The notes below the pieces were generated by a model. That model was given only the letters and a program-made list of their open reading frames with translations. It was not told the DNA's origin and made no database searches. 64,000 bases of DNA from an uncultured Chloroflexia bacterium (GTDB lineage: Bacteria > Chloroflexota > Limnocylindria > QHBO01), in the NCBI GenBank assembly GCA_963773405.1, contig CAVZAQ010000007.1, positions 118,224-182,223 on the forward strand. The letters are read 5' to 3'. Of the stretch, positions 2,074-47,895 are shown in pieces. Positions within the stretch are counted from its first letter, which is position 1. Each line of letters opens with the position of its first letter. Made by a program: the position numbers and the translations under genes.

Positions 2074-3156
2074 TCACGCGACGCGAGGGGGGGCCAGCGT
2101 GAACGTGACCCTCGTCCCGTGCCCGGGATCGCTCGACACGCCGATCGTCCCCCCGTGGCTGGCGACCAGCTCCTGCGCGATAGGCAGGCCGAGGCCGGAT
2201 CCGCCGGATTGCGGGTCGCGATAGAAGCGCTCGAAGATGCGGGCCGCTACCTCGGGCGGCATGCCCACCCCGGTGTCCGCGACCTCGACCGCGACACCGT
2301 TGCCCTCGCGGGTCGCCGCGACCCGCACGTTGCCGGCCGCGGGAGTGTGCCGGATCGCGTTCGCGACCAGGTTGCCAATCACCTCGCGGATCCGGATGGG
2401 GTCAACCTCGAGCGCGGGTAGGTCCGGGGACGCCTCCGCCTCGAGTCGCACCCCGGCCAGCTCCGCGCTCCGCGCGTGGGCCTCGACCGCCTCCCGGACA
2501 AGCACGCCGATGTCGGTCGGCTCACGGTGCAGGGCCAGCTCACCCGCCTCCGCGAGCGCCAGCGTGCGCAGGTCGTCGACCAGCCGCGCCAGGGTGCGCG
2601 TTTCCTCCAGCAGGAGGGCCACGTGTTCCGGATCGGCCGCATAGACGCCGTCCTGCATGCCCTCCAGGTTGCCCTGGATCACAGCCAGTGGCGTGCGCAG
2701 CTCGTGGGAGACGTCGGCCAGGAGCGCACGCCGGCGATCGCTGTCGGAAGCGAGGCGCTCCGCCATCTGGTTGAATGCGCGGGCCAGCCCGCGAATCTCG
2801 CGCGCGCCGCGCTCCGGCACGCGAACTGCGTAATCCCCCGCCTCGACCCGGCTCGCCGCCTCGACCAGGTCGCCCACCGGTCCGGCCGCGCGCCGGATGG
2901 CCGCCCACCAGCAGCACGACCAGCAGGATCCCCAGAATGGCAGGGTACCAGGCGTGCGGGCCGGGGCACCAGGCCCAGGGCGCCGGCGAGCAGCCAGAAG
3001 AGCAGCGTGCCACCCCCTACCGCAGCAGGATGAGGAGCGTGACGAAGAGGGCGACGCGAAACAGGAACCGCCTGCGCCGATGAGGCCAGGGGGAACCCCT
3101 GTGCCAATCCGCCGGGGGCCAGGTCTCGCCCTCCGGCCACCACGGGGGCCGTCCAC
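2074..3156 (-). pseudogene. sensor histidine kinase (HAMP-HisKA-HATPase), N-terminal region frameshifted as assembled
   Basis: The catalytic core is in one frame: H-box SHELRTPLAVIQGNLEGM, N-box IGNLVANAIRHT and G-boxes DTGVGM/GSGLGL. The expected TM segments appear in three other frames (FLFRVALFVTLLILL, LLFWLLAGALGLV, AILGILLVVLLVGG) between about 2890 and 3110. Confidence 0.8.
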
Positions 3157-3179
3157 CTGACCAGGGTGGACGTCGACGC

Positions 3180-3855
3180 TCAGGCATCGGCCAGCCGGTA
3201 GCCGACGCCGTACAGCGTGAGCAGGTGGCGTGGGGCTCGCGGGTCCGGCTCGATCTTGCGGCGAATGTTCTTGACGTGCGCGTCGATCGCGCGCTCATAC
3301 GACTCGAAGGCAACGCCGTGGATGGCGTCGAGCAGCTGGGACCGGGTCAGGACCCGGCCCGGCTGGCGAGCGAGTGCCGCCAGGAGCGCGAATTCGCTTG
3401 CCGTGAGGCTCACCGGCCGCCCGCCGACCGCGACGCGCATCCGCGGGACGTCCAGCACAATGTCCCCGGCGCGGAGGACCTCCTCTGCAGGCGCCACGCT
3501 GGCGCCGAAGAACCGCTCGAACGCGGGCCACGAGCTCGCGGGGGCTGAACGGCTTGGTGACGTAATCGTCGGCGCCCAGCTCCAGCCCCACCAGCTTGTC
3601 CGTCTCGTCGTCACGGGCGGTGAGCATGATGATCGGCAATCCGGAGGTGCGCCGGATCTCGCGGGTGACGTCGAGCCCGTCGATGCCCGGCAGGCCAAGG
3701 TCCAGGATCACGAGGTCCGGGTGCTGGGTGTGGATGCGCATGAGAGCCTCGCGCCCGTCCCGGGCACCGAGCACCGCGAAGCCGGCGCGCTCGAGGTAGT
3801 CGCGCACGATCTGGGTGATCTTGTGCTCGTCGTCGACGACCAGAATCGTCTGCAT
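3180..3855 (-). pseudogene. OmpR-family response regulator, one frame change between receiver and winged-helix domains
   Basis: The receiver domain (MQTILVVDDE...DLGLPGIDG...DDYVTKPFSPRELVARVRAVLRR) is in frame 3295..3885. The DNA-binding domain (LTASEFALLAALA...LLTLYGVGYRLADA) is in frame 3180..3698. The junction is near 3500-3520. Confidence 0.85.
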
Positions 3856-3918
3856 CGGTCCGCATGGTAGCCCGGCGGGCGGCATCGGCCGCGCGCCGGG
3901 CTCAGTACCGGCGGTAGC

Positions 3919-4344
3919 TCAGCTCGCCGGCGGTGTCGATCCGCCTGCAGCGCCGTCACGCTCGTGCAGCTCGCGGTGCCAACGCTCGATGGCGTCTCGC
4001 CGGTCGCCGAAGCCGCCGGCGCCGCCGGGTCCACTCCAGCCGCCGGGCCCCCGCCCATCCCAGCGATGGCGACCCCATCGGCCCCACCCGAACAGCGCGC
4101 GGAGCAGCGCGAAGACGAGGAAGATGCCCAGGATCCAGAAGAAGATCCCGAAGATCGGGAATCCCCAGCCCCAGTGAGGACCGTAGCCGTACCAGCCGTA
4201 GGCGACGGCCGGCACACCCGACGCTGTCAGCCCGGCGCCCTGCGCAACGCCCTGGTCGAGGCCCGCGTTATAGACGGTCACGCCCACGACGGCCAGGATC
4301 CCCACGATGACGACCGCGGCCAGGGCGCGCAATGCAGTTCCCAT
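3919..4344 (-). CDS. small membrane protein with Gly/Trp/Arg-rich C-terminal tail (first gene of the two-component operon)
   Basis: Internal ATG (MGTALRALAAVVIVG...) is preceded by AAGGAG. It has two TM helices followed by GWGRWGRHRWDGRGPGGW...RWHRELHERD. It lies immediately upstream of, and co-directional with, the response regulator and histidine kinase. Confidence 0.7.
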   Translation of the reverse strand: MGTALRALAAVVIVGILAVVGVTVYNAGLDQGVAQGAGLTASGVPAVAYGWYGYGPHWGWGFPIFGIFFWILGIFLVFALLRALFGWGRWGRHRWDGRGPGGWSGPGGAGGFGDRRDAIERWHRELHERDGAAGGSTPPAS

Positions 4345-4403
4345 GAACGTTCTCCTTTCGCTCGGCGTCGCTCTGCATACCACCTGTGGCGGGCGGCGCC
4401 GGG

Positions 4404-45736: not shown

Positions 45737-46150
45737 ATGACTTCACTCTGCATCCATGGTTTCCGCTCCGACGAATGCGCGTCGTGCCGCGAGTGCCCGC
45801 ATGGGCTTGCCGTAAGCCGATGCGGCCGTTGCCGAGCGGCCGCCACCGCCGCCTCGCGCCGGCGCATGGTGCCCGTCACGCCCCCTGACACCGACACCGC
45901 CACCTACAACGGCTTCGAGATCGTCTTCACGCCGGCCGTAAACGGCTGGCAGGTTCGGGCGCCGGACGACACCCTGTCGCGCGAGTCGTATCGGTCCGCG
46001 TTCCTGGCGCGCAAGGCCATCGACACGCTCGCATCGGCCGGCGTCGCAGAGGCACCGGCGCGCAAGCGCCGAAGAGTAGCCGCTCGAGCGGGTCGATCCG
46101 CCCTGCCTGACCAACGCAAGGGGACCCCGGAGGTTTCCGAGGTAAGGTAA
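45737..46150 (+). CDS. hypothetical Cys-cluster (zinc-ribbon-like) protein
   Basis: Internal ATG is preceded by GGAAGG. The sequence is [33 protein letters not shown]...[22 protein letters not shown]... It is the first gene of a tightly packed four-gene string. Confidence 0.55.
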
Positions 46151-46154
46151 CCCG

Positions 46155-46611
46155 ATGCGGACCGATGCTGAGCTCCTGGACCTGGCGATAGCGGAGGCAC
46201 GCATCGGCAGGGACGAGGGTGGGGTTCCCATCGGCGCCGTGCTGGTGGCCGCGGACGGCACGGTGCTGGGCGCGGGCCACAACCGCAGGGTCCAGCAGGG
46301 CAGCGCCATCCGCCACGGCGAGACCGATGCTCTGGAGAACGCGGGCCGGCTTCCGGCATCTGTCTACCGGCGCTCGACCATGGTCACCACTCTCTCGCCG
46401 TGCGACATGTGCACCGGCGCGATCCTCCTGTACGGTATTCCGCGGGTGGTGGTTGGTGAGCACAGGACCTTCCTGGGCGGCGAGGAGCTCCTCCGCTCCC
46501 GCGGCGTGGAGGTCGTCAACCTCGACTCGGACGCATGCGTGGCGCTGATGGACGGCGTTCATCTCCGCGCATCCGGAGATCTGGAACGAGGACATCGGCG
46601 AGGAGGATTGA
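46155..46611 (+). pseudogene. yeast-type (FCY1-like) cytosine deaminase, CMP/dCMP deaminase fold, one frame change near 46555
   Basis: HGETDALEN...TTLSPCDMCTGAILLYGIPRVVVGE holds the zinc ligands (H, C, C). After a one-base shift the C-terminus reads FISAHPEIWNEDIGEED-stop, colinear with the Fcy1 C-terminus. Confidence 0.8.
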
Positions 46612-46614
46612 TCC

Positions 46615-47452
46615 ATGAGCGAGCCGCGGGGGGTCATCCCTCGCTTCTACTGGTACGAGAGCCTGAACGTCGAGACGTACGACATTCGCCACCCGGTGGC
46701 CATGGAGGGGACGCCCATCGCCGGGGACGTGGCCTTCTACCGCGGGCTCGCCGAGGAGGTCGGCGGAGCGGTGCTCGAGCTGGCGTGCGGCACGGGGCGC
46801 GTGGCGATTGCCCTGGCGGAGGCGGGTCTGGCGGTCACCGGCCTCGACCGCTCCGAGCCGATGCTGGCCGTGGCGCGCGAGAAGGTTGCGAACGCCGACC
46901 CCGAGGTCGCCGGTCGCGTCGACCTCGTCCTCGGGGACATGACGGCATTCGACCTGGGGCGCAGGTTCGGCCTGGCGGTGATCGCCTTCCGCTCCTTCCA
47001 GTCATTGCTGAACCCGGAGCTGCAGTCGGACTGCCTTCGCGCGATCCATGCCCACCTGGAGCCGGGCGGGCGGCTGGCCCTCAACCTGTTCGACCCACTC
47101 CTGGACAAGTGCGCGCCGGGGTCGCCACCCTTCGAGCATGCGATCTCGCGCGGTGACGTGTGGCTGCCCAACGGGCATGCGGTGCAGGTCGCCGTCACCG
47201 CCCGCGAGGTCGACCCGATCACCCAGGTGATGCGCGAGACCTGGCGATTCACCGAGATCCGACCCGGCCGGGACCGTGGTCCGCGTGGAGGACGAGGAGC
47301 TCCGCCTGCGGTGGACGTACCGGCACGAGCTGCGCTACCTCCTGGAGCTCCACGGGTTCGCGGTGGAGGCGGAGTATTCCGATTTCGCAGGCTCGCCCCC
47401 CGCCTACGGGAAGGAGCTGATCGTGGTCGCCCGGCGCGAGGAGCGCGCATGA
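46615..47452 (+). pseudogene. class I SAM-dependent methyltransferase, one frame change near 47260
   Basis: Motif I is VLELACGTGRVAIALAEAG and the post-I motif is VTGLDRSEPML. The hand-read end after the shift is ...LRLRWTYRHELRYLLELHGFAVEAEYSDFAGSPPAYGKELIVVARREERA-stop. Confidence 0.8.
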
Positions 47453-47895
47453 CCGGGCCGACCGTCGAGCCGCCGGCCCATCGACGCGTCGAACTTCCGC
47501 GCGGCGCTGGATCTGGAGGTGACCCACGCGCAGACGGCCTGGGTGGCGACCACCGCCCGCTACCTGGCCCTGTGCGGGTACGGCGGGCCTGTGGCATGCG
47601 CTGGGCCTGTATGCCGGGGAGGAGATGGTGGGCTTCGCCATGTGGGCGCTCGACGACAGCGACGGCAGCCACTGGATCGGCGGCCTGATCATCGACCGCA
47701 CGCCAGCAGCGCAAGGGATACGGCCGGGCCGCCGTGCAGGCCCTGATCTAGTGGTTGCAGCGGGAGCAGGGGGCGTCCGAGATTGCGCTCAGCTACCACC
47801 CGGCCAACGAGGTCGCCCGCCGGCTCTACGCGAGCCTGGGGTTCACTGAGACGGGCGAGCGCGAGGGCGACGAGCTGGTGGCCCGCCGGCGCTGA
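47449..47895 (+). pseudogene. GNAT-family N-acetyltransferase, several frame changes plus an in-frame TAG
   Basis: The start forms an ATGA overlap. Pieces lie in three frames (VTHAQTAWVATTARYLAL, MVGFAMWALDDSDGSHWIGGLIID, RQQRKGYGRAAVQALI-TAG-WLQREQGASEIALSYHPANEVARRLYASLGFTETGE). Motif A (R-x-x-G-x-G) is recognisable. Confidence 0.7.

Follow-up and report, generated by a model that had tools for sequence, protein, structure and literature searches.

The textbook Nanopore error is a deletion within a homopolymer, and the pseudogenes of bacteria are reportedly biased toward deletion. Nanopore-only assemblies are expected to hold residual insertions and deletions (indels) below about 40x coverage (PMC9262707), and soil Nanopore assemblies carry more frameshift errors than HiFi assemblies (PMC13087279). 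Here we examine frame-disrupted genes in a stretch of 64,000 nt (the window) from an uncultured Chloroflexia bacterium (contig CAVZAQ010000007.1, positions 118,224 to 182,223), in which about 22 genes at 1.5-47.7 kb switch reading frame and all genes from 48.5 kb on are intact. Very probably, the frame disruptions are consensus errors of a long-read metagenome assembly and not mutations in the organism: comparison with relatives points to some 57 spurious bases, spread over about 50 sites from 1.5 to 47.7 kb, and to a handful of missing ones, in genes that appear otherwise fully conserved. The disrupted genes are almost certainly intact in the organism, and there is no biological feature here.

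A sequence-only reading of the window had proposed that many conserved genes are frame-disrupted, all of them before 48 kb, and both Pfam domain splits and orthologue mapping bear this out. Pfam scans of stop-to-stop open reading frame (ORF) pieces find single proteins spread over several frames (ApbE, FMN_bind, Ferric_reduct/FAD_binding_8, HtrA (Trypsin_2/PDZ), ABC2_membrane, META, DUF5671 and DEAD/Helicase_C each lie in at least two), and in tblastn the proteins of syntenic relatives cover each disrupted gene end to end by pieces in 2-6 window frames. Five related genomes hold every tested gene in one frame and, at each site, agree against the window. Frame-changing events were defined as register changes of the relatives' intact coding segments against the window, with at least two relatives in agreement; there are 53 of them. 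Before 48 kb, orthologues cover 32.7 kb of coding DNA, where 52 of the events fall at a density of about 16 per 10 kb. Private frame changes in the relatives themselves number no more than 1-2 per 10 kb, and many of these are alignment noise. The disruptions had been said to start at 2074; one event lies further upstream, at about 1543.

The G+C content is about 70% throughout the window, and raw ORF lists are therefore rich in spurious long ORFs. Coding frames were assigned with a codon-usage Viterbi decoder, self-trained on the clearest ORFs, in place of a simple frame plot of third-position G+C (GC3), which was dropped as too noisy. The decoding returned many same-strand frame switches at 1.1-47.4 kb and one candidate at about 51188. 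The raw count of decoder switches was itself dropped, since gene borders within operons count too and it fails to separate the window from its relatives; alignments to relatives were therefore used instead. The longest open frame before and after correction proved equally uninformative at 70% G+C, where wrong frames stay open, and was replaced by tblastn of orthologues. With the frame-corrected ferric-reductase protein as query, 28 loci were found in species-representative genomes, and the orthologue is in one frame in all the relatives retrieved. The five closest loci (87-91% protein identity) belong to Microflora Danica long-read metagenome-assembled genomes (MAGs) labelled 'uncultured Chloroflexia', and others are named Limnocylindria; the relatives share synteny with the window at about 4.5-11.6 and 17.6-32.3 kb. 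Two more protein searches, together with their contigs, widened the coverage by relatives to 33.8-64 kb; an AlkZ-like gene tried as an anchor gave matches without synteny.

The sequence-only reading had asked for each junction to be compared with orthologues, and this comparison typed the events as 45 of +1, 5 of +2, 2 of -1 and 1 of -2 (+n denoting extra and -n missing bases in the window), that is 50 insertion events against 3 deletion events. The insertion sites, whose sequence contexts were inspected, lie away from long homopolymers and share no common motif; a methylation-motif basecalling error, considered as a source, is unsupported on this ground. When the 53 sites were corrected in silico by removing 57 bases and adding 5, without any substitution, most disrupted genes gave full-length, single-frame orthologue alignments at 75-97% identity (tblastn), and the genes so restored contain no nonsense codons or larger deletions. 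Identity flanking a junction is that of the neighbouring intact genes, as in the ABC-2 permease (96.3% and 96.6%) and the adjacent intact ATPase (96.6%). The features concerned are given below with coordinates, strand and events (+1 where a position stands without a size, unless marked) and, in places, the orthologue alignment after correction.

1125-1586, plus strand: 153-aa membrane protein; +1 near 1543 and -1 near 1573 against the relative L006 (94% identical); last ~13 codons misframed.
2074-3182, minus strand: histidine kinase; HAMP, HisKA and HATPase_c share one frame (sequence inspection only, no covering relative).
3183-3870, minus strand: OmpR-type response regulator; receiver domain in ORF 3298-3918(-), Trans_reg_C in ORF 3183-3707(-) (Pfam).
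6397-7749, plus strand: second PmbA/TldD copy; 6709 (-1), 7014, 7078 (+2), 7262, 7332, 7385 (+2), 7550; corrected, orthologue 1-454 at 88.5%.
9161-10210, minus strand: ABC ATPase; +1 at 9269, 9306 and 9364-9388; ~40 C-terminal codons misframed, ORF open.
15119-16844, minus strand: first anti-sigma gene, downstream of the ECF sigma gene 16841-17401; frame switch probable near 15680 (codon model and translation only).
18247-18768, minus strand: second anti-sigma gene; 18328, 18657, 18669, 18693 (+2).
19590-20370, minus strand: ApbE flavin transferase; 19601 (+2), 19772, 19901, 19933, 20098, 20355; corrected, orthologue 1-267 at 91%.
20380-20930, minus strand: FMN-binding protein; 20383, 20402, 20518; +13 length difference in a Gly/Pro-rich linker, 20745-20773.
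20935-22330, minus strand: ferric-reductase-like flavocytochrome; 21082, 21181, 21664, 22068; Ferric_reduct and FAD_binding_8 in different ORFs; corrected, orthologue 1-464 at 92%.
22323-23475, minus strand: HtrA-type serine protease; 22452, 22850, 22997, 23075, 23198 (+2), 23310; corrected, orthologue 1-382 at 90%.
23671-25509, plus strand: propeller lipoprotein and cupin gene (two genes in relatives); 23796, 24629, 25487.
30722-32480, minus strand: DUF5671 membrane protein; single +1 at 31672.
34848-36155, plus strand: MFS transporter; +1 at 36031 and 36058, more length differences to 36128; C-terminal ~27 codons shifted; corrected, orthologue 1-431 at 91%.
38843-39611, plus strand: ABC-2 permease; single +1 at 38997; corrected, orthologue 1-256 at 97%.
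39631-39900, plus strand: 89-aa gene; single +1 at 39863.
39957-40639, minus strand: 247-aa gene; 40174 (-2), 40188 (+1).
40876-42090, plus strand: META-domain lipoprotein; 40982 (+11), 41268 (+1).
44133-45510, minus strand: DEAD-box helicase (RhlE-like); +1 at 44245, 44405 and 44902; +8/+1 at 45283/45303.
46155-46613, plus strand: cytidine/deoxycytidylate-type deaminase; single +1 at 46555; corrected, orthologue 1-150 at 93%.
46615-47450, plus strand: methyltransferase; single +1 at 47256; corrected, orthologue 1-275 at 88%.
47453-47895, plus strand: GNAT acetyltransferase; +1 at 47583 and 47698; read in three frames.
47896-48545, no strand: window-specific segment without coding signal; synteny breakpoint and border between the error-dense and the clean part.
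48546-64000, no strand: clean part; orthologues full length in one frame.

The catalytic His, Asp and Ser motifs of HtrA each sit in one frame, all three of them different (the translated pieces read as good protein); Pfam places positions 1-72 and 123-167 of the ApbE profile in different ORFs, and DEAD and Helicase_C of the RhlE-like helicase in different frames. For the first listed gene there is a single close relative (L006), so that the polarity of its two events is less certain. The kinase/regulator pair (2.1-3.9 kb) and the region at 11.6-17.6 kb are absent from the relatives, and the evidence for the pair and for the first anti-sigma gene is weaker for that reason; the disruption claimed earlier for the kinase and this anti-sigma gene finds support in sequence inspection and the codon model, with no relative covering either. 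In the kinase, transmembrane-like N-terminal segments appear to lie in other frames, which suggests at least two shifts between about 2900 and 3180. The junction in the OmpR-type regulator falls in the linker at about 3490-3505 (context CGGCGCCAGCG), and inspection agrees with the earlier observation that this junction near 3500 is away from any long homopolymer.

Some of the disruptions claimed by the sequence-only reading hold in part. The pmbA gene exists in two PmbA/TldD copies, of which the second is broken and the first (4948-6396) is intact. In L003, the closest relative and a species-representative genome, a private extra base at about 20184-20200 (window position ~5720) splits this first copy. 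The ABC ATPase does carry three +1 events, but these sum to +3 and ORF 9161-10210 stays open; the third of them (9364-9388) has support from L003 and L012 only, L005 being without net change there. The disrupted SRPBCC gene is probably the 247-aa gene at 39957-40639, which carries events, but no Pfam match backs the SRPBCC label. The switch at about 32477 marks the start of the DUF5671 gene and so was not taken for a frameshift.

The sequence-only reading had left two options, poor consensus or real decay. In the latter case, about 22 truly frame-shifted genes would lie in a decaying 46-kb stretch, and it is true that the disruptions are confined to one region and that several fall in dispensable genes. 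Yet decay should leave a mixed lesion spectrum with deletion bias, whereas we find 50 insertions against 3 deletions and no nonsense codons, an insertion bias opposite to the deletion bias reported for bacterial pseudogenes; even genes with up to 7 events show, once restored, no nonsense codons or large deletions. Private substitutions (positions at which the window differs and all relatives agree) are not increased in insertion-dense patches, and at codon positions 1/2/3 their rates are 2.3/2.4/12.0% in disrupted genes against 2.3/1.5/11.8% in intact ones. In the disrupted genes, third codon positions change at about 5-fold the rate of first and second positions, as in the intact genes, and the mark of relaxed selection is absent. 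From these equal codon-position profiles we therefore infer purifying selection on the disrupted genes, as strong as on the intact ones, throughout the separate history of the window lineage. The events are also too dense: they peak at one extra base every 100-200 nt and number up to 7 within a gene, and one gene holds roughly ten inserted bases in 850 nt at ~1.4% private divergence; judged by the sequence comparison, insertion density of this order at such divergence cannot be neutral decay. Moreover, two assemblies of a related species that are 99.3% identical (L031 and L032, below) differ by the same insertion pattern. Taken together, insertion bias, the lack of nonsense codons and an intact purifying-selection profile make genuine decay very unlikely. 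The evidence thus favours poor consensus and, within it, the strain-mixture variant, and decay is strongly argued against by the insertions, the indel-only repair and the selection profile. It is even harder to credit that the extra bases are real products of a very recent, insertion-biased burst (for example from error-prone repair or a polymerase defect at work in a single chromosomal domain) that inactivated ~22 genes in 46 kb too recently for other signs of decay to appear.

Programmed recoding, that is ribosomal frameshifting or transcriptional slippage restoring the frames in vivo, has as its sole point in favour the perfect conservation of the genes on both sides of the junctions. It would have to operate at ~50 sites that share no slippery motif, as many as 7 of them in one gene, and the orthologues of five relatives have no shift at any site. 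The orthologue comparison effectively refutes it, and its probability is negligible.

A consensus error is thus the preferred reading, and the sites themselves suggest its kind. For 35 clean +1 events, we determined which single-base deletion best restores the match to each relative. At 18 of the 35, some relatives are matched best by deleting one base and others by deleting its unlike neighbour, so that the window holds both alleles of a site that varies within the clade: CTGC stands against CTG or CTC in the relatives, for example, and CCCG against CCC or CCG. When insertions were placed at random in these genes by simulation, 18.9% of them produced the pattern (P = 1.5e-5) and 22.6% were pure homopolymer extensions, of which there are 0/35 among the observed events. 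The base pairs of the both-allele sites are at wobble phase in 14/21 cases, an enrichment we rejected as independent evidence, variable sites being mostly wobble anyway.

At collapsed variant sites, likelihood and partial-order-alignment polishers may put out both alleles in tandem. Within the artefact reading, we lean toward a consensus error of this sort, in which strains are collapsed and both alleles kept. Reads of two closely related co-occurring strains would have been collapsed into one contig, and at single-base strain differences, mostly at synonymous third-codon positions, the polisher would keep both alleles in tandem: with a consensus 'GC', G-reads and C-reads would each pay one cheap deletion, which would score better than a mismatch in half of the reads. 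The outcome would be insertion-only errors off homopolymers, patchy where the strains differ. Strain collapse would thereby explain why the errors are insertions only, lie off homopolymers, bring no excess of substitutions and come in patches.

Plain low-coverage noise offers a simpler account, in which too few Nanopore reads over the first 48 kb let random errors survive polishing and no second strain is involved. It draws on the indels that Nanopore-only MAGs retain below about 40x (PMC9262707), on the greater frequency of frameshift errors in soil Nanopore than in HiFi assemblies (PMC13087279), and on the fact that about half of the sites are without the both-allele signature. Such noise should, however, bring deletions, substitutions and homopolymer errors, against the 50 insertions to 3 deletions and the 0/35 pure homopolymer extensions seen here; private substitutions are not in excess in the insertion patches, the sites are strongly enriched at positions variable among relatives (P = 1.5e-5), and depth along a contig from a single genome should not change abruptly at 48 kb. 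We regard low coverage as an unlikely explanation, if one of some weight.

A control from the same dataset points to collapsed strains as well as to the generality of the pattern. The Microflora Danica relatives were sequenced with Nanopore R10.4.1 and assembled with Flye plus one Medaka round, with no short-read polishing, from soils of marked microdiversity (PMC12313526). A protein 100% identical to window 42843-43766 (P0241) lies on a contig held in NCBI and ENA, the same sources as the Microflora Danica MAGs, and the window most likely derives from a Nanopore-only soil Chloroflexota (Limnocylindria-like) MAG built as its relatives were, with Flye and one Medaka round. Two contigs of a single related species, L031 and L032, come from different samples; they are 99.3% identical overall and have an identical 689-aa permease. 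Against L031, L032 carries insertion patches at 8927-9325, 12288-12735 and 16007-16342, whose extra single bases fuse or split genes that are intact in L031, namely a kinase/regulator pair, LigB and GH130. Two of these three patches also show dense clusters of mismatches where the extra bases lie, in a pair that is nearly identical elsewhere. Patchy single-base insertions thus appear to be general in this dataset, including the public assembly of a related species.

The sequence-only reading had argued that uniform noise would not spare 16 kb, and the counts agree: after 48 kb there is one event (63683, at a gene boundary) in 10.7 kb of covered coding DNA, where a uniform rate predicts 17 (P = 8e-7). 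The longest event-free covered stretch is 2.8 kb before 48 kb against 10.6 kb at the window end, and patchiness alone therefore cannot explain the clean end. As had been stated, the genes from 48.5 kb to the window end are intact, including those of 689, 527 and 352 aa, their orthologues aligning over the full length in a single frame; the candidate at about 51188 was rejected, being the place where a 151-aa gene meets an intact glyoxalase gene. In the 650 nt at 47896-48545 we found no coding signal, no Pfam match and no similarity to any fetched relative; in its place, relatives have a 146-aa gene and an EVE gene (L033) or genes of 84 and 131 aa (L031). The closest relative is L003/L033 left of this border and L031 (L012 genome) right of it. 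If the strains differed structurally at 47.9-48.5 kb, the contig would follow a single strain beyond that point and the consensus would be clean; alternatively, the two strains may be identical past 48.5 kb.

The same border could mark a chimeric or mosaic contig, its parts before and after ~48 kb coming from different populations or assembly paths that differ in consensus quality and are joined at 47.9-48.5 kb. The change in error density does coincide with a 650-nt segment lacking a counterpart in relatives, at a synteny breakpoint, and the nearest relative does change across it, from L003/L033 to L031 (L012 genome). GC content and codon usage are nevertheless uniform across the join, and in all relatives the genes that border it (GNAT to the left, EamA and GH130 to the right) lie close to one another, separated by other genes. 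We consider a chimera doubtful; it is in any case compatible with the strain-collapse explanation and no replacement for it.

Several points weigh against reading the disruptions as consensus errors left by collapsed strains. The error status of the sites is deduced from comparison of sequences and not observed in reads, and the sequencing platform of the window is taken from its relatives. No second assembly of the window's species was found: its nearest relatives are 87-91% identical in DNA and the best JGI matches 84-91% (three protein queries, the JGI metagenomes themselves unscanned). The both-allele signature is present at only about half of the testable sites, the remainder being ambiguous, and one L032 patch has 9 extra bases with only 1 mismatch, so that strain divergence is not visible at every patch. 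Partial alignment persists after correction in the DEAD helicase (61-422/457), the second anti-sigma gene (1-86/147) and the ABC ATPase (1-273/320). Finally, the homopolymer deletions that are the classical Nanopore signature are not what the window shows, insertion-only errors off homopolymers being atypical; the artefact is therefore of a different subtype.

Other differences in gene content between the window and its relatives were noted. A 6-kb segment of the window (11571-17625) is absent from the syntenic L003 and L004, where alignments jump from 11571 to 17625; it encodes a 580-aa protein without Pfam match, a 545-aa RNase_T-type exonuclease, an anti-sigma gene and an ECF sigma factor, and is a strain- or species-specific island. 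At 37836/37848, the window is without a ~1-kb acetyltransferase gene (310 aa) found in L033, L034 and L037 between the PNP_UDP_1 gene and the ABC transporter. At 49505-49673, it is without the ECF sigma/anti-sigma pair that relatives have between EamA and GH130 (L031 17318-19356, L033 17740-19811), and two further genes of L031, BPD_transp_1 and one of 158 aa, are likewise missing from the window. Window 59638-61105 holds ~1.5 kb extra relative to L031/L032, with an apparently intact Methyltransf_11 gene (ORF around 60366-61016). The genes for ApbE, the FMN-binding protein and the ferric-reductase-like flavocytochrome form a cluster at 19590-22330; sequence matches to ferric reductase and ApbE recur in more distant Chloroflexota loci, and ferric-reductase homologues come also from Actinomycetota.

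Nanopore-only soil MAGs in public databases, some of them species representatives, can hold dense patches of spurious single-base insertions, by which genes are split, pseudogene counts inflated, predicted proteins truncated, and gene-content and metabolic inference distorted. A flag for such patches that needs no reads could consist of insertions only, off homopolymers, with both alleles adjacent and private substitutions not raised.

Three known systems invite comparison. Pseudogene-rich genomes, such as those of Mycobacterium leprae and of recent host-restricted symbionts, likewise have many neighbouring conserved genes frameshifted; yet they combine a bias toward deletion with nonsense codons, larger deletions and relaxed selection, and the window shows none of these marks. 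The IDEEL-type frameshift errors of Nanopore-only assemblies also resemble the window: single-base indels split conserved genes into adjacent ORFs, indel-only correction restores the genes, and the errors are commoner when coverage is low or the soil metagenome complex (PMC9262707, PMC13087279). The classical form is, however, homopolymer deletion, whereas the window has nearly all insertions, no pure homopolymer extension and a patchy distribution. Consensus errors from collapsed haplotypes would share with the window the insertion-only spectrum, the location at variable, mostly wobble sites where the window holds both of the alleles that occur among relatives, and the clustering with strain-level divergence, as in L031/L032; the signature is unambiguous at only about half of the window sites.

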